DNA from: Rhizaria sp. SCN 62-66
Lineage: Eukaryota
Direction of reading: 5' to 3'
Length of the DNA stretch: 50,516 nt
Assembly: GCA_001724265.1 (NCBI GenBank)
Contig: MEDY01000290.1
Location: forward strand, 1 to 50,516
The position numbers were made by a program, and so were the translations under genes. The notes under the pieces were generated by a model. It saw only the letters and a program-made list of their open reading frames with translations, made no database searches and was not told where the DNA came from. This document shows positions 26,491-46,107 of the stretch, in pieces. How positions within the stretch are numbered: position 1 is the stretch's first letter; each line of letters starts with the position of its first letter.

Positions 26491-29400
26491 ATGGGTTGTG
26501 AGGCTAGCCGTGAGCGGCCCAGCGACGAAGCTCTCTGGTACGTCAATCGCTCTCTTCCGCATCTACTCCTATTGCCAGTTTTCTTATTTTGCAACATATT
26601 CCCAATCTTGTTTTACCATAGCATTGGCTTTCACTGTTTAGCACCAACAAATATCTTACGTATCATCCCGTTTCTTTTCCCCGCTTCACCCTCCTCGTCA
26701 CCCCCCTTTACAACCCTACGGTTCGTGTCCTCGCTGCCTCGCCCTGCGCCTTCCGCCTTTCCCGACGCCTCAGCTACGATGACCTCGACGACTGGGAGCC
26801 CACGCTGTACGACCCCGCGCGCGCGGAGAAGTGGTCGCACCGCATCGAATACCTGACCGACCCCGTCGCCGGCGGCGCGTCTTGCCAGATGTTTAAAGTG
26901 CGCGATAAAGGCGCAAAACCAGACGAACCAAGCCTTCTCGCGCTTAAAGTCATGGACGCCACGCAGCCGGGCATCAAGGACATGTGGCTGAACGAAGTCC
27001 GCATTCTCCGCACTCTGTCCAAGGTCGCCGCCAAGCGCAACCTGCTCGAGTTCATCGACGCCTACTCGGCCAACGACCGGTGCTACTTGCTCACCACCTT
27101 CTACGAGGGCGGCGACCTCTTCTCCGCCGTCGAGACCATGGGCGCCAACACATACACCGAGGAGCGCGCCGCCGCGATGCTGCGCGACATGTTCCGTTCT
27201 TTGCTCGCCGTGCACGAGGCCCGGTTCGCGCACCGCGATGTGAAGCCCGAGAACTTCGTGTTCGAGACCCCCGACCCCGCCTCGACGCTGCGCCTCATCG
27301 ACTTCGGCTGCTCCTTCCGCGGCAACACAGGCGCGACCTCCCCGACCGCTAGATCGCTCTCGGCCGGCGTTGGCGGCAGCAGCGGCAACGGCACCGTGTT
27401 CTTCCCGCCCGTGCCGTCGACCTCGACCGCGGCCGCGACCGCTGAGTCAGCCGCGGCGTCCTCGGCCTCGGCCTCGTGCTGGGACGCCGCCGCCGAGGCC
27501 GCCGACGCGCTGGTGCCCATTGACCGCCCCCAGTCACTGTATTACGTGGCGCCCGAGGTGATCGCGGCGGACGTGCTGCAGGATGCGCGGTACCGCTGGG
27601 GCCGCTGCAAGCACTGCAACGAGCTCTTCTACCTCAAGGACCTGGGCAAGATCCTCCGCGGCGGCGAGCGCGCCGAGGAGCGCCGGCAGAAGGCGCGCTC
27701 GCAGCGCAGGCCCACCGTTTCCTCGAACAACCCCGCCGAGGCGCTCTCGCCGCTGGCGGGGCCCCAGAGCCACGGCCCGCTGTCGCTCGGCGCGACCCCC
27801 GCGGTGTCCGCGGCCGAGGCGGCGCTGTCCCCGCTCATGTCGCCCCTCGTCTCGCCGCGCGTCGGGCCTTCGGCGGCGGCGGGCGGCGGTGCGATGCTGC
27901 CGCTGACGTCGACGCTGTGCGTGACGGGCGGGCCCCACGTCGCCGACGCACACAGCCGCTACCGCGTCAAGCACCGCCGCGCCCCGCTCGCCAGCAGCGC
28001 GGTGAGCCCCTACGGCCACCTCGGCGGCGCGGCGACGAGCGTCAACTTCAGCAACAACAGCAACAACGGCGTTATGAACAGTAACAACAGCGGGCACGGC
28101 GTCGAGTTCAAGCCCGAGCCGCTGCCCGCGCTCTCGCTCCGCGTCTCCAACAGCGGCGGCTCCGGCCACAGCAGCAGCAGCAGCAGCAGCAGTAGCAGCA
28201 GCAGCAGCAGCGGCGCTATCGGCGCTGCGCACGCCATCGCAGAGGCCCCGTCGTCGCCCCTGGCCGGCGGCGCCCGCGGCTCAATGTCCGCCAAGACGCG
28301 GTCCCGGTCCAACACGACCGTGGGCGGCAGCGAACCCCCGTCGCTGTCGTTCTCGTCGTGTATGGCGTGCGGCGGTATCGTGTGCCTGGACCGCAACATC
28401 CCCACGCAGGCGCTGTGCCGCGCCACCAAGGGCATCCACATCCTGCTGTGCCACCACGACTACCATCTGGCGGCCAACCCTGAGGCGATGGCCGCGATCC
28501 ACGCGCTCGACACGCTCAAGCCCTCGCACGCCGCGCGCGCTGTCGCCCAGGCCGACTTCACGGCCTTCAACGCGCGCACGCTCGCCTGGGTCCAGGCGCA
28601 GGCGCGTGCGTTCGCACTGCGAGAGATCGCTAGTGCTGCCGACGACGCGCTGCACTCAAACAACAACAGCAGCGGCAACGGCAACGGCAACGGCAACAAC
28701 AACAGCACTGGGAACAGCAACAACAACAGTCCTGGCGATGGCGAGGCCGCAGCGCTGCCGCAGCATGGGCTCACCACCAGCGCCAGCGCTGTCGTCACCG
28801 GCCACGGCAACGGGTCCTATGCCAACGGCAACGGCAACGGCGCGGCCGGTGACACCGATAACGTGGACCTCCTGCGGTCTTCGGTGCGGCGCATGACCGT
28901 GAGCGGCGCCTCGCCCTACCCGCGCCCGCGCTCCGCAGGCCCCCTCGACTCGGGCAACGGCAGCAGCGGCAGCGGTGGCGTTGCGGGCGCGGCGCAGAGC
29001 TCGGCCAGCAACACCGTGCTCATCACTAACAGCAGCGGCGTCACGCTCTCTAGCTACACCGTCGATGGCGGCGCGAACGGCGGCAACGGCGGCAGCGGCG
29101 CCGACTCGGGCGTGTTCACGCTGCCCTCGTGGTGGGTGCCCGCGCCGCTGCCCATCAGCAACCCCGCCGGCGTGTTTGCCGCGACGATCAAGCCGCCGCC
29201 TGCCGCGCTCCCGCCGCCGGGACTCGTCCCCGCGCCGCCGCAGCCGCTCTCGGCCGCCGCGCTCGCCGCCGCGGCCGCCGCGGCCTCGGCCGCCTCGGCG
29301 TCCGGCTCCAGCTCGCGCCGCGGCAAGAAGAGCGGCAGCGGCAACAGTGTCGACAGCAAGGCCGACGCCTCGCTCGCGGGCGGCGGCGACGCGGCCGCGG

Positions 29401-32400
29401 TCGGCGGCGACAAGGGCGTGCGTGAAGGCGGCTGGCGCGTGTGCGCGACCTGCGCCGTCGTCTACTGGTCTCCGCACCCGCTGCAGCCCGCCAACGGCAG
29501 CACCGGGCATGCGCACAACCACAACCACTCGCACGGTGACGCCGACGCGAGCGCGAGCCTGGGCTTTCTGTTCGACTCGCGCAGCGCGTTCGACCCCACG
29601 GTGCCGCTGGTGCCCGAGGTCGCGTCGTGCCCGCACGCGCTCTGGGCTGTGGGCGCACCGGTCCACCTGCCGCTGCAGCCCGCCATCACCAACGGCAACG
29701 GCAGCGGCGCTCCGGGCAGCACCGGCGCGGGCAGTGCGAGTCAGTTCGCTGCCGCGGCCGCTGCGGCCGCGTCTGCCGACGCAGAGGCCGCGGCGCAGGC
29801 GAGCGCGGACAACACCATCTCGACCTTCGTGCACTTCGGCCGCAGCCTGGTCCCGCTCGACGGCGCCGCCGCGGCCGACGCCGACGCCGAGCTGTGTCCG
29901 CCGCCGCCCGCGCAGGGCTTCTACCTCGACGCCGGCCCCTCGTTCCAGTACAACGGCGGCAACTCCAGCGGCAGCGGCGTGAATAACAACGCGACGGGCA
30001 TCGCGCTGTCTGCAATCGCCACAAACGCCACGGCCGCGGCCCACAGCAGCCTCGTCAGCGTCACGGCTAGCGCCAGCAGCACGCTCGGCGGCAACGGCGG
30101 GGCGCTGCTGAGCTCCGAGACGCCCGCGTTCACGCCCTCGCTGCCGCTGCCGATCTCGACGAGCGGTAGCGGCAGCGTGCTGGGCGATGTCGGCTCCAAC
30201 GGCGCGGCGCCGTCACCGTCGTTCGCGCTGATGTCGACCGACGCGAGCAGCAACACTGCAGGCAACAGCAACGGCATCAGCCACGGCCACGGCCACGGCC
30301 ATGGCCGCGGCGCGAGCCTCGGCGGCCCCGGGTCGCTGCACCTGACGCCGACGCCCTCGCTGGCGGCGCTGTCGACCGACGAATCGCTGACGCTGCTCGC
30401 CTCGTCGAGCTCCATCTCCACGGCGCGCATGGCGCAGCTGTCGTTCCCGCACATGCCGCTCGTGAACCCGCTCGCCACTGCGCCGCCGGGCACTGCGCCC
30501 GTGGTCCCCGTGCCCGTCCCCGCCACGCTCCCGCCGCTGACCTTCGCGCTCGCCAGCGCACAAGCCAGCGCCGCCGCCGCCGCCGCGTCGCCACGCGCCG
30601 CCGCCCGCAATGGCAATGGCAATGGCAGTGGCAGTGGCAGTGACAGTGGCGCAGTAGGTGCCGATAGCTCCGAGGCGGGCCGCAGGCTGGCGGCCGCGCA
30701 GAGGCGGCTCGACCAGTTCACTTCGGCCGCCGCCGCTGCTGCCCTCAATAACAACAACGGCAACGCAGGGAATAACCTCAACAACAACAGCAACAGCAGC
30801 AGTGGCGGTGCGAAGGCAGGGCGCTCCCCATTTGCGCCGGCGCCGCCCAGCGCGAGCCCCAGCGGCAACAACTCGCCCGCCAAGGGGGCCCTCGGCGGCG
30901 GCGGCATCACGCGCACGAACAGCAACAGCTCCAACTCGCGCGTGTGCAGCCTCCCGTTCTTCGGCGGCGGCGACAGCGACGACGACACCGACGCCGACCA
31001 GTCCGGCAGCGGCGGCCTAACTTCTGTCTCGGCCGTGCCCACGCACTCGCCCCTGCCCTGGGACGTGCACTTGGACACGGGGCGCGTGCTTACCTCGCGG
31101 CTCTGGCGCGCCAGCGACGTGTGGTCGCTGGGCGTAGTTATGTACGTGCTGCTGACTGGGCGCGCGCCATTTTTCTCGCAGGATCCCGGCCAGATCCACC
31201 AGCAGATCCTCGCCTGCTCGTGGGACGTGCCGCACGCGCTGTCACCCGCCGCGATCGACCTGCTCACGCGCGTGCTCGCGCGCGACCCGCTGGCGCGCCC
31301 CACGGCGTGGCAGGCGCTGCACCACCCCTGGCTGGCGGGCGCGCCGGGCGCCGCCTCGCGCGCGCCGCTGAGGCACGTCGCGCGCGCGCTCGTCTCGCTG
31401 CGCCGCGACACGCTGTCCGGCCACGGCCACCTGCGGCGGGCCATCGCGCGTAGCTTCGTGGCCGCGGGCGCGTACGTACCGGGCGCTTTCGACTGCGTGG
31501 CGTCGGTTCTCGAGCAGCTCGACCACGACGGAGACATGCAGCTCGCCATCGACGACGTCGCGCTCATCTTGGCTAAGTTACAGCAGGAGTACGCGCTCAT
31601 GGCGCAGGAGAAGCGCAGCAAGCTCAACGCCGCCAACAGCAACGCGCTCGTTGACGCCAGCTCTTCTCTCCAGCAACAGCAGCTTCAGTCTCAGCAGTCT
31701 CAGCAACAGCAGCAGCAGGCGCCGGTGCTGTCGTCGCTGCACCTGGAGGTCGCGCAGGAGATCATGTCGGACATGCACCTGACGCCGCAGGGCCGGATCA
31801 CGCGCGACGAGCTCAAGATCGCGCTCGCGGCCGCCACGATCGGCTCCGTGCACTCGGTGCTGGGTCCGCTCGAGACAGTCTTCACACGCCTGGACGTCGA
31901 CAAGGACGGCGCGGTGACGCCGCGCGACCTGCTACAGGCGCTGCGGCCGTACGTCGGCGCGGATGAGAGCGTGGATATGTGCCGCGCGCTCCTGCTCAGC
32001 AACACCACGGGCAAGCACGGGGGCGGCAAGGCCGGCAAGAACGGCAAGAGCGAAGGCAACGCCGAGGGCGACGACGACAACGACGACGATCAAGTCTGCG
32101 TGAGTCTGGCTGACTTTGCGCGCGCGATGATCCCGTCGTACACGCGCAGCTCGATGTTCGCGCTCTCGCTTCCCGCCACGCCCCCCTCGGGCGGCATCTC
32201 GCACGACAACTCGCCCGCGCTCTCCCCCACCAACACACAGTACGGCGTCGCCCCCGGCGTCATCGACGGCCAAAACGGCTATCACCACACTGCAGCTGTG
32301 GCGGCGCACGGCGGACAGTCGTTCAGCGAGAGCGGGTACGCGCAGTCGTACGACATGAGCGTCAGCACCATCGACGCTAGCGCTCATGCTAACGCTTATG

Positions 32401-32651
32401 CGAACTCCGGTGCGAGTGTGGACGCTGTTGCGGCGGCCAAGGCTCAGGCGCACGCGGTGGCGAAGGCTGAGGCGGATGCGCTCAAAGACAGGTTTACCGA
32501 GGCGTCGTTCGGCGACCTTGACACGGTAATCAGCCATAACAACAATAACAACAGCGCGGAGAACCCTGAGATGAAGACGGTCACGGGTGCGAACGGAGAG
32601 ATGGCTGAAGGGGCGGTTATGGTTGCGCCGTCAATGCCCGGCACGGCTTAA
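26491..32651 (+). CDS. Calcium-dependent protein kinase (CDPK/CAMK group)-like protein with an interrupted catalytic domain; exons 26491-26537, 26774-32651 (~1,974 aa)
   Basis: N-terminal MGCxxS myristoylation/palmitoylation motif; intron GTACGT...CTCAG at 26538-26773. Kinase motifs: G-loop AGGASC, ALK, NEVRIL, GGDLF, HRDVKPEN (27231), DFG (27300), YYVAPE (APE at 27549), DVWSLGVVMYVLLTGRAPF (31116), RPTAWQALHHPW. EF-hand-like loops DHDGDMQLAIDD and DVDKDGAVTPRD plus two degenerate ones. Confidence 0.88.
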
Positions 32652-37593: not shown

Positions 37594-40500
37594 ATGCAGA
37601 CGACCTTCTGCGTTGAGCGCGAGCTCACGCGTCCGACCGTGATCGAGCACTCTCTGCGCGCCCACTTCACGTCGCCTGACGCGATCAACCTTGTCGTCGC
37701 TAAGGCCACCGCGCTCGAGGTGTTCGAGCTGCGCCCGGAGTTCGCGGACGAGGTCGCCACTACGAACAACCTTGCTATCTCACACGCGCCGGTGCAGTCC
37801 AGCGACGCGGGCGCATCAAGCAGTGAGAGCATCAACAGTAGCAGCAGCAGTACAAGTAGCAGTAACAGTAGCGGTGCAAGCGACGACGCTGCCGCGATCA
37901 CGTCTCGCTCTGGCGGCTCTGGCTCCAACAGCACGAACAGCGTTGTGGAGTCCGTCCTCGCCCGCCAGACGCAGCACCCCGAGTCGGCCTCGCAGCCGCC
38001 GCTGCTGCGCGTGCTGGAGACGCGCGTCTACGGGCGCATTGAGGCGTTGCGCAGCATCCAGCTGCCGCACCGCGACACGCACAGCCTGCTTGTGGCCTGC
38101 CCCGACGCCAAGCTCTCGGTGGTGCATTTCGACCGCGCCACGCAGTCGCTGCAGACGCTCGGCATGCACTGCTTCGACCACTGGAGGCCCGACGGCGCTG
38201 GCGCAGCGACGCCAGCGGCCACCCGAGCCTCTGCCGCGGCGCCGCCGCTGCTCGCGGTGGACGGTGATAGCCGCTGCGCCGCAATGGCGTGCTTCGGCAA
38301 TCAGGTTATGATCTTCGGCCACAACCACCACCAGCGCGCGCTCTCCGCCACGCTCGGCGGCGCGAACGCAGGATCCAACGGCAGCGGGTCTAGCTCGAGT
38401 GCGAGTGCAGGCGCGGGCGCGAGCTCTAGCTTGGTGCCGCATAACCCCACGGGCGTCACCTCAGCGCTGTGTCTCTCCACCACGCTTGCGGCCCTCCCGG
38501 CGCCGCCCGCCGCCAAGGCTGCCTCGGCCTCGGCCGCCGCCGCCTCCGCCGCGGCCGCCGACACCGCCGCGGCCGCCGCGGCCGCGCTGACCGCTGCCGC
38601 GGCGTCGCCGCTGGCGCACACGATGACGCTGTCGCTGTCGCAGTATCTGTCGTGCCCCACCGCGCGCGTTAAGGACATGTTGTTTCTGCACGACACGGCG
38701 ACGCCGTCGCTGCTGCTGCTGGTCGAGACGCAGCGCACCTGGTCCGGCCGCTACAGCGCCGTCAAGGCCTCGTGCTCGCTGCTGGTGCTTTCGTTCCCGT
38801 CGCTGCACTCGCTGCCGACGCTGACGACCAAGCTCGACCACCTGCCCCACGACGCCTTCTCGCTCGTCCCTGTCCCGCCCTCCCTTCCCACCTCCACGCT
38901 GGGCCGCGGCTCCGGCTCCGGCACGGGCGCGGGCGCGGGCGCGCGCGGTGAGAGCAACGGTGTGCTGATCCTCTCCGCGTCGTGCATCTACCACTTCCAC
39001 AACCTGGTCATCGCGTACACGCTCGCGACGAACGAGTTCGGCGACAACTCGGAACACTCGAACAACACCAGCGGCAGCAGCGGCGCGCTCTACCGCACCG
39101 TCCCCATGGCCACACCGAGCTATTCGCATAGCGCGGGCAACGGTGATGGCTACTCAACGAACAACAGTAACAGCGAGGACAACGTGATTACTGCCTGCGG
39201 TATCGACCTCACGCACGCAAAGATCGCCTTCTTTGCCGCTAATGACGTATCTAACGCTGCTAATCGCAGTAACGCTTTTGGCGGTGGCGGTGGCGGTCGC
39301 TGGGGTCCGTCGCATATGCAGCAGCAACCGCAGTCGCAGCAAATCTTGGCTTTGCTCACCACGGCCACGGGTGCGGGCTACATCCTTACTCTGCAGCTGT
39401 CGGACGCCAATGTAAGGGGCATGGTACTTACCCCCGTCGCGGGTGCCGACTGGGGGCTCTTCGCGTCCACCCTTACACGTCTGGCGAAGGGGGTCGTGTT
39501 CATGGGCAGTCGTCTCGCCGACTCGCTCCTGCTCCAAATCTGCTGCTCACAGTTGCGATCGCAGAACACCACTAACGCCGATGCAGAGCAGCAGTCTGGT
39601 GGTTTCACGCCTAGCGGCTTGACTTCCGCCCTCAGCGGCCAAACCTCCGCGCAGCCGCCCGCGCTGGCGAGCACGCTGCTGGTGCGCGACACGCTGCCGA
39701 ACCTTGCGCCGCTGACGCACCTCAGCGCGGCGCCGCACGCGAGCGCCAACGACCCGGTGCCGCCGCCGCAGCGGCCGCCGTCGTCGTGCCTGGGCCCCGG
39801 GCCACGCGCGTTGCAGCCGACGCACGCGGAGCAGAGCGCGGCCGTCAAAGGCGGCGCCGCGCCGCTGCCTGTGCGCGTGTCGGCCTGCAGCGGCTACGAG
39901 CGCGGCGGCAAGCTCGTGCAATTCAAGCAGGGCGTTGCGCCGCGGCTGTTGGCGTTTGCGCCCGTCGCCGCTGCGCCGGTCCTCGTCTCGTCCTCGCAGC
40001 CGAGCTCACACGACGACGGCGCAAGCTCGAGCGGCGCGAGCGCGGCAAGCAGCAACGCTAGCGCGCCTGCGCTGTTTCCGTTCGTCCCGAACGCGGTCAC
40101 GTCTCTGTACCCGCTGCTGCTGCCGACCGCGCTCGCCGACACGGCAGCTGCGGCCGCCGCCAACTCGGTTGCCGGCCGGCCGCTGGCCGCGCTGGCCGTG
40201 GTGCGTAACGACCACCGCCGCCGCCGCCGTCTGCGCGAGAAGATCACTGCCACGGGTGTCGCAGGTCCTGGTGCTTCTGCAGCGGCTGCGGCCGAGGTCG
40301 CGGAGACGGCGGCCGAGCTCGCCCGCACGGCGGCGGCGGCGGCCGCGTTTGAGCAGGCGCTGGTGACGTTTGAGAGCGAAAAGAAGGTTTTATCCGGGTT
40401 TCTCCCCGCGCCGCCTGTTTCCTCTGCGGCCGCAGTGGACGGCAGCGGGAGTGTAAGTACCCCCTCAGACGCCGTGAGCGCGAGCGTGCAGCAGTCGCTG

Positions 40501-43500
40501 CTGGTGGTGTCTCTGAGCGACGGCACGCGCGTCTTCGAAGTCGCTGACATTGCGCTGAACGACGTGCAGAAGCACCTGCAGACGCTTTCGCACCGCACGA
40601 AGGTCAGCACCACGAACGCAAACGCTATCACCAACAGCAATAACAGCAGCGGCAGCAACGCGAACAGCAGCACGAAGACGATGACTGACGCGGACGCCGA
40701 CTCTAGCAAGAACGACAGCTCGAACGCTGACGCTACGAGCTCAGACGGCGCGAGCAGCAGCAATGACAGTCCAAGCGACGACGCCGCCGAGGGCAACGAA
40801 GAGGAGGCCGTCGCGCTGCCCGAGCCCGTGCTGATGGCGCTTGACGCCATCCTGAACACGGGCGCGCTCGCCGAAGTGACCGACCAGACGCGGCTGCGGC
40901 GCCACGAGCCCACACTGGCGTGCGGCACCGTGCTCGGCGCGCTGGGCGCCGTGGTCCAGGTCACCGCGCGGGCCGTCGTGCTCTTCGACGGCTGCTACCA
41001 GGAGCTCTGCAGCATCAAGCCCACCTCGCAGTACGCCGCCGGCAACGCTGGCAATGCGGGGAGCATGAGCAACGCTGCTGCTGGCGGTGCCGCCGCGAGC
41101 GCCGGTGTCGGCAACGCTGCCGACGCGGCGAACGGCGTGAACGAGGACGTGGTCGTGGTCAAGGCAATCGTGCTAGACCCTTACGTTGTCGTCGAGCTAT
41201 CCAACGGCGCCCTCGTTAGTTATTACTTCAACGCGAACCCCGAGACTGAGGACTGGTACGCCGTCGCCGAGGTGCCCCCAGCCATTTACAGGGGTTTGAG
41301 TGCCGCTGGCGGCGCTGCGGGGATGAACACCACGAACCACACCGGCGTTGACAATGCAGCGGTGCCTGCGGCGCATGACGGCTTGAGTTATGACACGTCG
41401 CGCCTTCACTTCCCGCCGACGCAGAGCATCCCCCCCGTCTTCAATCACTCTAGCACTAGTTCCTACGATCCTGTGACGGCGATCACCGCGCAAAGCGTCA
41501 GTCTGTACTCGCTTTTCCCCGTGTTGACGCGCGCGCTGGCGACTTTACGCGACACCGCCATCGCAAACGGACTCGTCACTCCCCACGCACAGTCCGCGAG
41601 CAGTAGTACCGCGTCTATGGCTACTGCAACGACTAATGTCGACGGCGGCGTTGTGGCTGGCGCGTACCGCGTCGCGCGCGCGGTGCTGCAGCAGCTCGTG
41701 CGCTCCGGCGCGATCGCCGACCGGGCCACCGCGAGCAAAGCTGAGCTCGACCTCACCGCCATGGCCAAGGCGGCGTTCTCGCACATCCACACTCATGGCA
41801 ACGGCAACGGCAACGATAGCTCAGCTGTTTCGATCCCCGGGGTCGCGAGTGCGAATGCCCGTGTCGACGAGATGGTCGTGAAGCTGGAAAATGAATTCCT
41901 CGAGCACGGCGCCGTCGATTTTCTCGGTCCCGCGGCCCGCCGCTCCCGCGCGCACACCTCGGGCGGCGGAATTTTCGGCGACGATAGCGAGGACGCCGAC
42001 GTCCAGCTTGGCGCTCCCAACCCTTCCGGCAGTAACAACAACGGCGGCGGCGACGACGCCAACGACGACAGTGTGGCGCTGGGCCTGCCCCCGCTGCCGC
42101 CGCTGGCGCTGCTGTTCGTTGCCCGCGTGCGCGTGCTCGAAGTCTACGCGCTCGAGACGGGGCAGCTGCTCTTCGCGACGCCCACGCTCGGCAACCGCGC
42201 GCCGCTGCTGCCCAACGCGCTCCACAACAACGCAAGTAGCTCTAGCAACGCGAGTGCGGCTGCGGGCGGTAGAAACAGCGTGGCCGGCGCCGGCGAGGAG
42301 ACGGCAATGGTCGCGGCTACGGCGGCGACGACCGCGATCGCCCCCGCCATCACGGACCTCTGCGTGCCGCCCCCGCCGGCCTCGGACCCGCGCGCGGCCC
42401 TTCACCTCTTCGCGCTCGCGGAAACTGGAGACCTCTCCATTTTGCGCGCGTTCGAGTTCGCCCCGGCTTCGGTCTGGGCCTCGCTCGTCACGACCGCCTT
42501 CGCCACCTTCGTGCCCCTCCGCTCGCAGCAGCTAGGTGGCAGCGACGCTGTAGTCAACGCATCTACGACTGCAGTCGATCCGTACACCGGGAGCAAGGTC
42601 ACGTCTGAGTCTGCGTCTCTGTGGCCGTTCCTACTGGGCGCCCCATCCCTGTGGCTCTCGCACACCGGCAGCGCCAACAGCGGCGCCGGCGCCGCCTCGC
42701 GCCACAGCACCCGCGCGCAGAAGTCGCAGTGGCAGGCGGCGTCGCAGTGGCAGCCGTCGTCACTGCTATCGCTGCTGCCGCTCCACGCGCTGCCGCTGCG
42801 CTTCGTGCTGGCCCCGCACACGGCGGCCACGCGGCCCCTCGCCGGGGAGCGCGCCGCCGTCGACGCCCTGGCCGCGGCGCTGCGGACCGCGCTCGACGCC
42901 GTCCCCTCGCCCCCCGCGACTCCCTCCGCGCCGTCCGCGCCGTCCTCCGCGGCGGCGACGGCGGCGGCGCCGTTTCCCTTCGGGCTGACGGCCGAGTCTG
43001 CCAACGCGCTGTACGACATGATCACGGCGTCCAAGACGGTCACGGGCCAGCTCCTGACGCAGCAGCAGGCCGAGGCGCTGCAGGCCGAGGCGCTCACACA
43101 GACCAGCCTCGCCACTGCGGCGGCGACTGCCGCCGGCGGCGCGACCGCTGTTGCGTCGAGTGCCGCGAACGCTGCGAACTCGGCTGACTCGCAACAGTCG
43201 CAGCAGCCGGAGCAACCGCAGCAGCAACAACAGCAGCAGCAGCTTTCTGCAGTCGCCAGCATCAGCGCCAACAACAGCGTCAAGAGTCTCGTGCTTTCTC
43301 GCTATTTTCTTTCGCCCGCGTTCGACCTGCCTTCGCTGAACAAGCTCACCGCCTTCACCGACGTCTCGGGCCACTCCGGCGTCCTGCTCTCGGGCACGGC
43401 CCCGTACCTTTTTGCGCACTCGCGCGGCACGTACTCGGCGCACCCGCTGCTGCCGCCCGCAGCCCCGCTGCCGCCACGCATGCTGCCATCGCTGTTGCTG

Positions 43501-46107
43501 CCGCCTGCGCCGACGCGGCTGTTGTCGGCGCTCGCCGCGGCGCCGTTGTCCCCCGCCGTGCTTGCCACGGCCTTCCTGCCGCTGCCGCGCTCGCGCAGCG
43601 CCGTGCTTGTCCTGGCCGACCTCAACGGCAACCTCGCCACGGCGCGCCTGCCGCCCGCGGCGCCCGCGTCTTTCGCCTACCCGATCCCCACGCCGGCCGG
43701 GTTGCACAGGGCGTCGCCCGCCACGGCATACTCCAGCAACAGCAGCTTCGTGCCGCCAGCGCAACTCTTCCTCCGCGAAACCGCCCGTGCGCGCGCGGCG
43801 GCGGCGGCTGCGGAGGCCGCGGCTGCGGCGGCCGAGGCCGAGGCGGAGGCCGAGGCGGCGGCTGAGGCTGCGGCGGCGGCTGCTGCTGCTGTTGGCGGCG
43901 GCAATAGTGCTGCGGAGGCTCCTGTCAGCGCGAGCAAGAAAGCGAAGAAGGGCGCGCGCAACGCGGTGGCGGCGAAGGGGTCTGCAGGCAGTGTATCTGC
44001 CGCCGTTGCCTCTGCTGCTCTGACGCACACCTACGGTGCCAAGAATAACAACGCTAACGCTAGCACCAAGAGCAGCGAGTCCGCCGGAGGAGACTCTGGC
44101 TCCGCTGCGGCGCCATCCGATGCGCTGCTCTATGGGTTCGTCTCCGCTTTCACTCACTCATACGGCTCACTTGCCAACCCGAGCTCGAGCGTCGCAAATC
44201 CAAGCGGCAACACCGACGTCGAGGTTAAGAAGGAGCCTGATGTGCTGAAGAACAACACTGTTGTCTCTAAGAGTGCTCCCTCAAGTTCGAGTGTTAGTGG
44301 CGCAGCGTTGCTTTCCGCCTGCTTGTCCCACCCTCTGGCGTCCCCCCTAGCAGTGCCCCTCTTCACCCCATCTGTCCTCAGTGCGGCCACCACCAACAGC
44401 GGCGACGGCTCGAGCTCTAGTAGCAGTGCGATTGCGCTCAACGAGGTTGACTTGCCTCCTCTGGGCGGCTTGACTTCCGAACAGCACGCCCGTCAGTCTG
44501 CTGCTCGTCGCTACTTGCAGTCGCAGTCTCAGGGTAAGTACCCGCGCTCTAAGTACCTCCGCGCCTACTCGCGCCATGCGGCCTCGCTGCTCACCACCTC
44601 CGAGGGCCTGGCTTACACCGCGCTGCCGCTGAGCGCGTCGCCCGTTTTCGTGACGCACCACGCGGCCACCAACATCGACGTCGTCGTCGTCGCCAACCTT
44701 AAGCAGGCGCAGTCGCGCGAGGTGCCGTGTGCTCTGTCGCTCGCGGCTACCGAGGTGACACACCAGGTGCTGTTCCTTAACCGCGAGAGCGGCGAAGTGA
44801 TGGCCAAGTACGACGCTATCACCGATGACGAGCTGCCCACGGCGCTGCTGCCCATCACGCTCAACAAGGTGCCCTACTTGGCGCTCTCGCTCGCGTCTAA
44901 CAAGGGCGTCGAAAACCTCTCCAAGGGCCGCGTCGTGCTCTTCCGCCTCTCGTACACGCTCGGCTACACACATACTGGCGCGACCAAGTGGTTCCTTAAG
45001 GTGAAGCCGCACGAGCACGCAGAGCAGGGCCCCGTGACGGCCATATGCGAGATCGACAACATGCTCTGCGTCTGCGTTGGCGCGCGCATCATGCTGTACA
45101 GCATGGAGAACAACGTGCTCGACGGCAAGGCTTTCTTGGACGTCGAGGCGATGTGCACCAACATCTACGCCGTCAAGGACATGCTCGTCGCCACTAACGC
45201 CTACCGCGGCCTGATTTTGATCTGCTGGGACAAGGAGGCCAAGTCGTTGTATGTCCTGGGCAAGGACGGCGAGCACACGACCACCTTGTCCTCCGCCGTG
45301 GTCATCCACGAGGGGCCCGACGGGCCGGACGGCCAGCTCGCGCTCGGCCTGTCCTTCGCGGTCGCCGACGATAAACGCAACATCCAGCTGCTACGCTACC
45401 TCCCCGCGAGGAACCGCATCGCGAGCAACAACCGCTTGCTGCCGCGCGCCGACGCGCACTTGGGCACGCGCGTGCTGCATCTGCTGTCGCTGCGCGCGCC
45501 GTCGCTGACCGCGCTGACCGACGCCGCCGTCACGCTGCGCGCGCGCGCGTTGTCATTGTCGCCCGCGCTGGCCGCCGCGCGGCGTCCGCTGCTCTCGCAG
45601 CGCAAGGACCCGTCGGCGCTGGCGCGCTTACCGCCGCTGGCGCACGCGCGGCCGCCCGCCGCCGCGCCCACGGCCGTGACGGTGGCGGCGCTGGCGGCCC
45701 GCGACCGTGCGCGGCTGCTGCACCCGCTGCGCACGCTCCTGCTGGGCGCGGGACAGGACGGTGCGTTGCTGGCGATCGCGCCGCTGGAGCGCACCGTGTT
45801 CGCGCGCGTGATGGCCGTGCAGGTCGCGCTCGCGTGCGTGGCCCCGCAGGCGCTGGGGCTGAACCCGCTGGCGTTCCGCGCCTTCGCCGGCCCGCTGACG
45901 CAGCACCGCGAGGGTTACCGGCGCAACATTGTCGACGGGAACCTGCTCGAACTCTTCCTCTCGCTCGAGGTCGGCACGCAGAAGAAGATTGCGCACGCGG
46001 TCGGCGCGACGCCCGCCGCGGTGATCGATGCCGTGATGCTGTGCCAGCAGCTCATGAGGCTCGCGCCCGGGCTGCCCGCGTATGCTGCATTTGACCGCTA
46101 CGATTAA
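37594..46107 (+). CDS. CPSF1: Cleavage and polyadenylation specificity factor subunit 1 (CPSF160/Cft1), intronless, expanded to 2,837 aa
   Basis: Family motifs in order: PTVIEHSLRAHF...NLVVAK, DAKLSVVHFD, TWSGR, LPHDAF, NGVLI, FMGSRLADSLL, ACSG, EPTLACG...VVQVT, SKGRV, GPVTAI, ADDKRNI, RADAHLG, GLNPLAFR, RNIVDGNLL. Confidence 0.93.
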   Translation: MQTTFCVERELTRPTVIEHSLRAHFTSPDAINLVVAKATALEVFELRPEFADEVATTNNLAISHAPVQSSDAGASSSESINSSSSSTSSSNSSGASDDAAAITSRSGGSGSNSTNSVVESVLARQTQHPESASQPPLLRVLETRVYGRIEALRSIQLPHRDTHSLLVACPDAKLSVVHFDRATQSLQTLGMHCFDHWRPDGAGAATPAATRASAAAPPLLAVDGDSRCAAMACFGNQVMIFGHNHHQRALSATLGGANAGSNGSGSSSSASAGAGASSSLVPHNPTGVTSALCLSTTLAALPAPPAAKAASASAAAASAAAADTAAAAAAALTAAAASPLAHTMTLSLSQYLSCPTARVKDMLFLHDTATPSLLLLVETQRTWSGRYSAVKASCSLLVLSFPSLHSLPTLTTKLDHLPHDAFSLVPVPPSLPTSTLGRGSGSGTGAGAGARGESNGVLILSASCIYHFHNLVIAYTLATNEFGDNSEHSNNTSGSSGALYRTVPMATPSYSHSAGNGDGYSTNNSNSEDNVITACGIDLTHAKIAFFAANDVSNAANRSNAFGGGGGGRWGPSHMQQQPQSQQILALLTTATGAGYILTLQLSDANVRGMVLTPVAGADWGLFASTLTRLAKGVVFMGSRLADSLLLQICCSQLRSQNTTNADAEQQSGGFTPSGLTSALSGQTSAQPPALASTLLVRDTLPNLAPLTHLSAAPHASANDPVPPPQRPPSSCLGPGPRALQPTHAEQSAAVKGGAAPLPVRVSACSGYERGGKLVQFKQGVAPRLLAFAPVAAAPVLVSSSQPSSHDDGASSSGASAASSNASAPALFPFVPNAVTSLYPLLLPTALADTAAAAAANSVAGRPLAALAVVRNDHRRRRRLREKITATGVAGPGASAAAAAEVAETAAELARTAAAAAAFEQALVTFESEKKVLSGFLPAPPVSSAAAVDGSGSVSTPSDAVSASVQQSLLVVSLSDGTRVFEVADIALNDVQKHLQTLSHRTKVSTTNANAITNSNNSSGSNANSSTKTMTDADADSSKNDSSNADATSSDGASSSNDSPSDDAAEGNEEEAVALPEPVLMALDAILNTGALAEVTDQTRLRRHEPTLACGTVLGALGAVVQVTARAVVLFDGCYQELCSIKPTSQYAAGNAGNAGSMSNAAAGGAAASAGVGNAADAANGVNEDVVVVKAIVLDPYVVVELSNGALVSYYFNANPETEDWYAVAEVPPAIYRGLSAAGGAAGMNTTNHTGVDNAAVPAAHDGLSYDTSRLHFPPTQSIPPVFNHSSTSSYDPVTAITAQSVSLYSLFPVLTRALATLRDTAIANGLVTPHAQSASSSTASMATATTNVDGGVVAGAYRVARAVLQQLVRSGAIADRATASKAELDLTAMAKAAFSHIHTHGNGNGNDSSAVSIPGVASANARVDEMVVKLENEFLEHGAVDFLGPAARRSRAHTSGGGIFGDDSEDADVQLGAPNPSGSNNNGGGDDANDDSVALGLPPLPPLALLFVARVRVLEVYALETGQLLFATPTLGNRAPLLPNALHNNASSSSNASAAAGGRNSVAGAGEETAMVAATAATTAIAPAITDLCVPPPPASDPRAALHLFALAETGDLSILRAFEFAPASVWASLVTTAFATFVPLRSQQLGGSDAVVNASTTAVDPYTGSKVTSESASLWPFLLGAPSLWLSHTGSANSGAGAASRHSTRAQKSQWQAASQWQPSSLLSLLPLHALPLRFVLAPHTAATRPLAGERAAVDALAAALRTALDAVPSPPATPSAPSAPSSAAATAAAPFPFGLTAESANALYDMITASKTVTGQLLTQQQAEALQAEALTQTSLATAAATAAGGATAVASSAANAANSADSQQSQQPEQPQQQQQQQQLSAVASISANNSVKSLVLSRYFLSPAFDLPSLNKLTAFTDVSGHSGVLLSGTAPYLFAHSRGTYSAHPLLPPAAPLPPRMLPSLLLPPAPTRLLSALAAAPLSPAVLATAFLPLPRSRSAVLVLADLNGNLATARLPPAAPASFAYPIPTPAGLHRASPATAYSSNSSFVPPAQLFLRETARARAAAAAAEAAAAAAEAEAEAEAAAEAAAAAAAAVGGGNSAAEAPVSASKKAKKGARNAVAAKGSAGSVSAAVASAALTHTYGAKNNNANASTKSSESAGGDSGSAAAPSDALLYGFVSAFTHSYGSLANPSSSVANPSGNTDVEVKKEPDVLKNNTVVSKSAPSSSSVSGAALLSACLSHPLASPLAVPLFTPSVLSAATTNSGDGSSSSSSAIALNEVDLPPLGGLTSEQHARQSAARRYLQSQSQGKYPRSKYLRAYSRHAASLLTTSEGLAYTALPLSASPVFVTHHAATNIDVVVVANLKQAQSREVPCALSLAATEVTHQVLFLNRESGEVMAKYDAITDDELPTALLPITLNKVPYLALSLASNKGVENLSKGRVVLFRLSYTLGYTHTGATKWFLKVKPHEHAEQGPVTAICEIDNMLCVCVGARIMLYSMENNVLDGKAFLDVEAMCTNIYAVKDMLVATNAYRGLILICWDKEAKSLYVLGKDGEHTTTLSSAVVIHEGPDGPDGQLALGLSFAVADDKRNIQLLRYLPARNRIASNNRLLPRADAHLGTRVLHLLSLRAPSLTALTDAAVTLRARALSLSPALAAARRPLLSQRKDPSALARLPPLAHARPPAAAPTAVTVAALAARDRARLLHPLRTLLLGAGQDGALLAIAPLERTVFARVMAVQVALACVAPQALGLNPLAFRAFAGPLTQHREGYRRNIVDGNLLELFLSLEVGTQKKIAHAVGATPAAVIDAVMLCQQLMRLAPGLPAYAAFDRYD
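44528..44546 (+). repeat. Dispersed motif copy CTCAGGGTAAGTACCCGCG, followed by a second copy CTAAGTACC at 44549
   Basis: Identical to 12121-12139 but translated in a different frame (SQGKYPR versus LRVSTR). Confidence 0.9.

Follow-up and report, generated by a model that had tools for sequence, protein, structure and literature searches.

A calcium-dependent protein kinase-type gene with a large, conserved Cys/His insert in the αEF-αF loop of its catalytic domain

Can a protein kinase keep more than a thousand residues between the two halves of its catalytic domain, or is such a segment taken out of the RNA or the protein? The question is raised by a gene on contig MEDY01000290.1 (C290; 50,516 nt, hereafter the window) of the 34.9-Mb, 714-contig eukaryotic assembly of Rhizaria sp. 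SCN 62-66, whose predicted product resembles the calcium-dependent protein kinases (CDPKs). A preliminary description of this DNA had reported that APE and the DVWSLG motif of subdomain IX are separated by 1,186 in-frame codons and no AT-rich intron, and had left it undecided whether a kinase folds around the insert or the insert is lost through non-canonical splicing or processing of the protein. Reanalysis gave the same coordinates: from the end of APE (27557) to the Asp of DVWSLG (31116) there are 3,558 nt with zero in-frame stops, the remaining five frames containing 4–33, and GC content is 0.69–0.76 in every 500-nt bin over the insert, with no AT-rich segment. Third-position GC is 0.91 in the insert and 0.88 and 0.90 in the kinase halves. 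The catalytic motifs were likewise found intact (ALKVM, NEV, HRDVKPEN, DFG, DVWSLG, RPTA and HPWL are present), and the activation loop, put at ~80 aa, measures 86 aa from DFG to APE inclusive. The normal APE-to-IX link, put at about a dozen residues, is 15–18 aa in eight of eight short CDPK relatives measured and 11–12 aa in all 10 measurable other kinases of the genome (20 other kinase loci were taken and motif patterns gave a row for 16, with the link measured in 10 and the activation segment in 14). Since the loop is unexpanded in these 10, general protein inflation does not explain why an insert stands at this site.

Querying with the first kinase half yielded 13 proteins, three of which (P0002, P0003 and P0004) are far closer to the window kinase than the others. 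P0003 (1,493 aa) and P0004 (1,459 aa) carry inserts of 731 and 706 aa at the window's site; P0015, a member of the P0004 cluster, is identical in the alignment, and P0002 is a partial sequence of 484 aa whose similarity is lost past the second conserved block (M1b, see below), probably through a frameshift or truncation. All three share the post-APE sequence RYxWRRCxxCSELY. The kinase halves of the window protein are 57–69% identical to those of P0003 and P0004, and 32–44% identical to those of three short CDPKs. In a tree of 49 kinase cores, built without P0002, P0005, P0015 and any protein lacking one clean core, the three complete long forms make up one clade with support of 100/100 and a long stem (1.29), nested in a group rich in short CDPKs that carry RTGxxWKASD at the loop; the sister relationship has the weaker support of 81/86. 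The DNA encoding P0004 and P0015 (L011) is an orthologous locus, since it opens with a matching exon 1 (MGCECSRES..), after which comes a phase-2 intron. Its neighbouring genes show no low-complexity inflation, indicating that the insert is older than the inflation of the window genome; the preliminary description had overlooked both this age and the conserved content described below. Four short CDPK relatives (P0100, P0103, P0126 and P0167) have αEF-αF loops of 33–36 aa ending in RTG.IL(K/R)A.D, suggesting that the subfamily tolerates growth at this same loop. Besides the long forms, seven rows of the survey have an APE-to-IX distance above 30, namely these four and three others (81, 343 and 371), which look like unconfirmed cases of the pattern skipping to a later motif. 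No description of this clade or of its insert was found in the literature searched, mainly the main texts of non-subscription journals.

With low-complexity masking, blastp aligned P0004 to the window insert in five collinear segments (E 1e-10, 2e-7, 9e-5, 0.001 and 0.005), and seven blocks plus an end motif occur in identical order in all three complete proteins (Table 1), with low-complexity stretches between them that vary freely in length. The spacer between M3a and M3b is 56 residues in the window and ~200 in P0003 and P0004, while that between M3b and M3c is ~450 in the window and 26–39 in these relatives. Eleven of the 13 Cys of the window insert sit in blocks and, by inspection, are matched in both complete relatives. 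They make up three modules, in each of which a CxxC knuckle precedes a distal Cys/His set; the two are contiguous in the second module (M2) and split by a spacer in the first (M1a with M1b) and the third (M3a with M3b/M3c). M2 has 19 of 32 residues identical to P0004 (E 1e-10), with a Cys/His spacing of CxxC-x4-C-x10-C-x6-H, and in the structure model of the orthologue it forms four short strands at a predicted local confidence (pLDDT) of 65–75; in a separate M1-M2 model of the orthologue M1a appears as a beta-hairpin (pLDDT ~75), and M1b, a distal Cys/His pair, probably completes a split zinc site with it. The M2b pattern was written post hoc, with the sequences already seen. Over five of the blocks the window and L011 agree at 62 of 107 residues, 38 of which are specified by different codons, and identity at codon positions 1, 2 and 3 is 0.59, 0.77 and 0.40, a pattern that points to selection on the protein.

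Zinc fingers are recognized by a conserved CxxC with distal Cys or His residues, and each of the three knuckles is accompanied by a distal C..H or C; on this pattern, the modules probably bind zinc. The idea that they are repeats of one unit found no support, as the common pattern is seen by eye only and the M2 profile is negative on the other modules. Searches for relatives of the modules returned little beyond the clade, and their blanks are no proof of absence. In a HMMER scan of 1.84 billion representatives, only P0002, P0003 and P0004 among the best 150 matches extend into the insert, with a profile that included kinase columns of P0003 and in which weaker stand-alone module matches could not surface. 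A word-index search with P0004 residues 255–535, in which the best 8,000 candidates were scored, and another with the M2 alignment (87 candidates) each gave P0003 and P0004 only, the ESM Atlas gave three matches, all under 0.8, and the one true match among three rows in the window's own genome was the window itself. M2 relatives were confirmed in none of 106 candidates from viral contigs, and the one of 42 pattern matches that passed in prokaryote genomes lay in a shadow frame and was rejected. A PDB sequence search with the modules gave CxxC-only matches with E of 0.85 or above. Among the six weak fold matches of the separate M1-M2 model is a Dof domain (35 residues, 1.7 Å); several of these noise-level matches (Dof, L37A/eL43 and TFS4) are small zinc-ribbon proteins, and a bacterial W-x-W-C-x-K-C repeat may resemble M1.

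Is the protein around the insert still a kinase? The inferred gene model predicts a protein of ~1,974 aa with an MGC start (ATG 26491, reading MGCEAS...), kinase, junction and EF-hands; a single frame is open over 26622-32651. Exon 1 fits the general consensus for N-terminal acylation. A Pfam scan of the whole protein finds Pkinase in two stretches (E 8e-34) and weak EF-hands; the best PDB sequence matches are CDPKs and CaMKI for the window kinase and apicomplexan CDPKs for the orthologue. Two features of a CDPK are found on one chain: a CaMK-group kinase domain with intact catalytic residues, and a C-terminal calmodulin-like domain with four EF-hand positions. The preliminary description had suggested structure prediction with the insert; an AlphaFold model of the L011 orthologue (1,002 aa, 13-row alignment) shows a normal CaMK-type fold closing around an extruded insert. 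The kinase blocks flanking the insert mostly have pLDDT 85–95, the insert itself is below 50 save for M2 and one short helix, and its end forms a strand and helix with pLDDT climbing from 61 to 93. Once its low-confidence parts are trimmed, 262 residues of the model, from both halves, can be superposed on CaMKII (rmsd 1.6 Å, Z 31.5). With the catalytic Lys, the αC Glu, HRD-K-N, DFG, APE, Asp IX and Arg XI retained in all complete long forms, the kinase is, on sequence grounds, probably catalytically active.

This assignment has to be weighed against a pseudokinase, or a calcium-independent scaffold, in which the protein is made whole and the insert is its working part, the enzyme being dead or ungated by calcium. 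Such a product would be in line with a G-loop that lacks its first and third Gly, an activation segment padded by 59 aa, the degenerate EF2 and EF4, EF-hand scores that fall below the curated Pfam cut-offs in the window protein (those of P0003 lie above), the long stem of the long forms and the presence of a compact CDPK elsewhere in the genome. That compact gene (L064, G000:C208:41822-43279) encodes a CDPK of the conventional kind, which has four EF-hands and an APE-to-IX loop of 10 aa, so that the genome has the split kinase as an additional paralogue. The catalytic residues are nevertheless kept, and the branch leading to the window (0.40) is similar to that of P0004 (0.35). As for the G-loop, which the preliminary description had listed as an exception among intact motifs, the sequence AGGASC is there as it said (VAGGASC in full), but GASC is near-invariant over long and short relatives and (G/A)xGASC is common to them, which makes it a subfamily trait and not decay. 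We therefore consider a dead or ungated enzyme unlikely, although calcium control may be weakened, judging from the EF-hand sequences.

A second alternative is that the insert is passive padding, a functionless product of the protein inflation of this genome. The neighbouring genes are indeed inflated (a CPSF1-like protein of ~2,840 aa and a CFAP54-like gene over four giant frames), 64% of the insert is A/S/G/N/P/T, and three of the 14 other genome kinases measured have an activation segment above 50 aa. Against this, the insert is present in L011 with its uninflated neighbours, the loop is unexpanded in the other measurable kinases, and the Cys/His blocks are conserved with synonymous change, which already contradicts padding as far as the blocks are concerned. 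As an account of the whole insert, padding is quite improbable; it probably accounts for the extra 450–480 aa. Inflation has probably added these residues, 59 aa of activation-loop padding and the break in EF4, which is canonical in P0003 and P0004. In line with this, DFG to APE is 86 aa in the window kinase vs 27 aa in 12 of 12 other proteins measured, and on this comparison the long activation segment is private to the window species.

Could the insert be absent from the mature RNA? Five of six listed sequencing runs contain the window stretch or part of it, four of which were examined, all as contigs. Evidence for expression comes from X3, a poly(A) metatranscriptome, and X4, from a second study; X1, probably DNA, and X5, which has no library record, were not counted. 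The listed contigs of X3 and X4 cover 27575-29226 continuously, 29314-29582 and 29938-30125, that is ~2,100 of the 3,558 insert bases, near-identical to the window, and X3 record 9 covers 27226-27518, reaching into the activation segment, without a gap. Among the contigs listed, none is spliced across intron 1. Seven substitutions are listed in the insert at low depth, of which six are at third positions and five are synonymous; the listed indels net to whole codons, as triplet repeats would also yield. An origin as spliceosomal intron was rejected, the insert being GC-rich (0.69–0.76), open, codon-biased and conserved as protein; the window's true introns are AT-rich and ~150–240 nt long, with a GT donor, a pyrimidine tract and AG. 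These data, together with its conservation, indicate that the insert is very probably translated.

An exitron could still be spliced from some of the mRNA, from GT 27590 to AG 31114, leaving an 11-residue loop. This pair is in frame (3,525 nt), its donor GTACC resembles the GTAC of the true introns, and L011 likewise has a GT at the Arg-Tyr codons. However, six GTs lie nearby, so one in-frame pair is expected by chance; there is no pyrimidine tract ahead of the AG; in L011 the corresponding position lacks an AG and the two in-frame pairs end elsewhere, so that the only in-frame GT..AG pair of the window (27590..31114) is not conserved; and the product would drop the W(K/R)AS motif. No insert-skipping joint is found among the 15 listed of 76 joints, the listed ones being short-sided and joining simple repeats. 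An exitron is thus very improbable. Inteins favour conserved sites in enzymes. Removal at the protein level, as an intein or mobile element or by proteolytic excision giving a two-chain kinase (proteolytic loss of extensions is suggested for a Plasmodium kinase in an excerpt of PMC526369), is likewise very improbable, because no Hint, endonuclease or transposase family matches the insert, HN[CST] and HQ[CST] are absent from all three inserts (the preliminary description had likewise seen no terminal signature C/S...HN-C/S/T in this one), and M2 relatives are unconfirmed in viral contigs, with the single shadow-frame match in prokaryote genomes. Of the two outcomes first proposed, a kinase folding around a retained insert is supported by the orthologues, protein-level conservation, RNA-labelled contigs and the structure model, whereas removal by splicing or processing finds no support.

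Taken together, these results make it likely that the product of the gene is a CDPK-type Ser/Thr kinase, anchored in the membrane and probably active, with a retained, old and functional Cys/His insert. Given the matching inserts of the relatives, this segment looks like a useful addition to the enzyme and not like an intron or a mistake. The catalytic domain would be assembled from two halves 1,186 residues apart, and the translated insert would loop out of the surface αEF-αF turn beside the activation segment, as a mostly disordered tether with some three small metal-binding modules of Cys and His, of which one is contiguous and two are interrupted by spacers. It would have been gained once, in the ancestor of the kinase clade, and maintained by selection, its spacers being enlarged further in the window species as in its other proteins. 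The modules would dock or regulate, bringing partners or substrates to the kinase, a role toward which we lean slightly by analogy with other kinases. Lying 11–20 residues past APE, the first module may steady the activation segment in the manner of the zinc finger in the CDC7 insert.

Several observations weigh on the other side. Just four independent sequences are known to carry the insert, and no Pfam or NCBIfam family matches its blocks. The fold matches of the M1-M2 model are weak (six at Z 2.0–2.2, with Foldseek E >5), and the M2 profile finds neither M1 nor M3, its scores on the remaining insert sequence all being negative. The structure model is that of the orthologue, and the short CDPKs in its alignment bias it toward a closed kinase, so it shows plausibility only. 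The degenerate EF2 and EF4 make calcium control uncertain. The RNA evidence consists of strandless contigs from libraries that may contain DNA, none of the listed ones bridging either insert end by 31 letters on both sides. Finally, the excerpts of PMC5342071 describe the 500-residue insert of MASTL as dispensable for activity in vitro.

The clade shares with CDPKs the MGC start, the CaMK-group kinase, a junction-like segment and the four EF-hand positions, and differs from them by the post-APE insert of 706–1,186 aa and, in the window, by two degenerate EF-hands of four. CpCDPK4 of Cryptosporidium parvum (PDB 3HKO) is, in the sections of PMC3227725 consulted, a CDPK with a zinc finger inside the kinase domain that is proposed to affect the activation state; that insert has 40 residues, lies after the hinge and holds one His/Cys3 site with a CPCPEC core, whereas the present one follows APE, is 18–30 times longer and has three CxxC modules with no common motif by eye. 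Kinase insert 2 of CDC7, described in part of PMC7416108 as mostly disordered, its zinc finger holding the activation loop in place and binding a partner, is, by analogy, the best mechanistic model for the window insert; it differs in its size (~170 aa), in extending the activation loop before APE, in its one zinc site, in requiring DBF4 and in belonging to another kinase group. The NCMR of MASTL/Greatwall is, in the portions consulted of PMC5342071 and PMC6930252, likewise a very large insert that splits a kinase domain with activity kept, but its 548 aa lie between DFG and APE, are poorly conserved and are dispensable in vitro. Membership of the MASTL or CDC7 type was rejected, since the giant insert begins after APE. 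Low-complexity inserts are frequent in apicomplexan kinases, and cgd4_3710 of C. parvum has a post-APE insert; the excerpts of PMC526369 and PMC3227725 describe such inserts as non-conserved, report in them no conserved Cys/His modules and give the whole cgd4_3710 domain as >400 residues. The window protein would function much as the known split kinases do, but because site, size and motifs all differ, its insert falls outside these known classes.

Table 1. Positions of the split-kinase gene and its parts in the window
Feature	Position	Strand	Description
Coding exon 1	26491..26537	+	MGCEASRERPSDEAL; predicted signal for N-myristoylation (G2, S6) and for palmitoylation (C3)
Intron 1 (predicted)	26538..26773	+	236 nt, GTACGT..CTCAG, pyrimidine-rich; sole intron inferred in the gene
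Exon 2	26774..32651	+	Remainder of the protein, TAA end
Kinase, first half	26865..27299	+	G-loop VAGGASC, ALKVM (26940), NEV, HRDVKPEN (27231)
Activation segment DFG..APE	27300..27557	+	86 aa inclusive; 59 Ala/Ser/Gly/Thr-rich residues beyond the relatives' length
Insert in αEF-αF loop	27558..31115	+	1,186 aa, low-complexity scaffold (64% A/S/G/N/P/T) with conserved blocks
Block M1a	27588..27629	+	RYxWxRCxxCxEL, first CxxC knuckle, starts 11 residues past APE; in window, P0002, P0003, P0004
Block M1b	27915..27974	+	CxxGxxHxxD..YR, distal Cys/His pair; in all four proteins; pLDDT ~74
Block M2	28350..28445	+	FxxCxxCGxxVCxxRNxPxQxxCRATxxxHxL, contiguous putative zinc ribbon
Block M2b	29169..29195	+	Short hydrophobic motif FAATIK / FALLIR / YGLLTR; weak; ordered alike in three proteins
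Block M3a	29421..29471	+	REGGWxxCxxCAVVY, third CxxC knuckle; 13/17 identical to P0004, E 1.7e-7
Block M3b	29571..29642	+	FDP..CPxAL; 13/24 identical to P0004, E 0.001
Block M3c	30939..30962	+	R(V/M)C(S/G)(F/L); weak, non-significant alone; possible fourth ligand of third module
Insert end	31041..31115	+	..LDTGRVLTSRLWRAS, aligned with FFIESSRVMTTTVWRGA in relatives and RTGK.WKAS in short CDPKs; helix F follows
Kinase, second half	31116..31334	+	DVWSLG (helix F), RPTA (subdomain XI), HPWL; 65-69% identical to P0003/P0004
Region at the place of the CDPK junction (autoinhibitory)	31365..31460	+	Aligns with post-kinase segment of short CDPKs; end approximate
Calmodulin-like domain	31521..32114	+	Four EF-hand positions aligning with short CDPKs
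EF1, EF3	31521-31556, 31893-31928	+	Near-canonical, Asp at position 12, acidic ligands kept
EF2, EF4	31776-31811, ~32073-32114	+	Degenerate

Other genes of the window and genome are recorded here as side observations. On the plus strand of the window, a CFAP54-like gene (920-25889; Pfam CFAP54_N E 2e-6, in the first frame only) apparently runs over four giant frames of 974–3,682 aa, with 27–33% Ala and short AT-rich introns between them, amounting to ~8,000 aa if it is a single gene; its presence suggests a flagellated organism. A CPSF1/CPSF160-like gene (37594-46107, plus strand) is one frame of ~2,840 aa, roughly double the usual length, padded with Ala/Ser/Asn/Gly runs. The three long activation segments of other kinases measure 168 aa (L050, G000:C211), 52 aa (L053, C52) and 68 aa (L061, C62) from DFG to APE, and in L050 the stretch from subdomain IX to XI is also 130 aa long. 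Contig G000:C706 carries a very divergent 18S rRNA gene (L062:1501-5945) with four group I introns (Rfam) and, at 2095-2637 of L062, a frame for a His-Cys box homing endonuclease (Pfam zf-His_Me_endon, E 4e-14). Copies of ubiquitin read as single units, each extended by MS at the N terminus and ending in a short tail past LRLRGG (L037, L038, L040 and L041, on G000:C3, C651, C168 and C182); three copies lie within 3.2 kb on C3, and head-to-tail polyubiquitin is absent among the five loci examined.

A bolder reading, which we put forward only tentatively and regard as doubtful, is that in this undescribed CDPK clade the split zinc modules of the αEF-αF loop became the main switch of the kinase as its EF-hands decayed: zinc loading, oxidation or partner binding would close the modules over hundreds of disordered residues and so brace the activation segment. 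If true, this would make the modules a new family, and the spacers, whose lengths differ up to ~thirtyfold among species, would offer a natural experiment on folded motifs in elastic disordered scaffolds.

The αEF-αF loop is among the most length-constrained places of the kinase fold. Across 497 human kinases, growth of this loop (ALC~HF) does not go beyond 28 residues and the largest insert at any site has 548, according to the part of PMC6930252 consulted. The 700–1,200 residues found here in this loop, with conserved content, exceed that largest insert, the comparison being with the human kinome. Annotators should be aware that a kinase of this type comes out of profile searches as two fragments. 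Spacers and modules can be separated by deletion, giving a clean test of what the kinase loses, and the finding widens the known tolerance of the kinase fold while supplying candidate new Cys/His modules.

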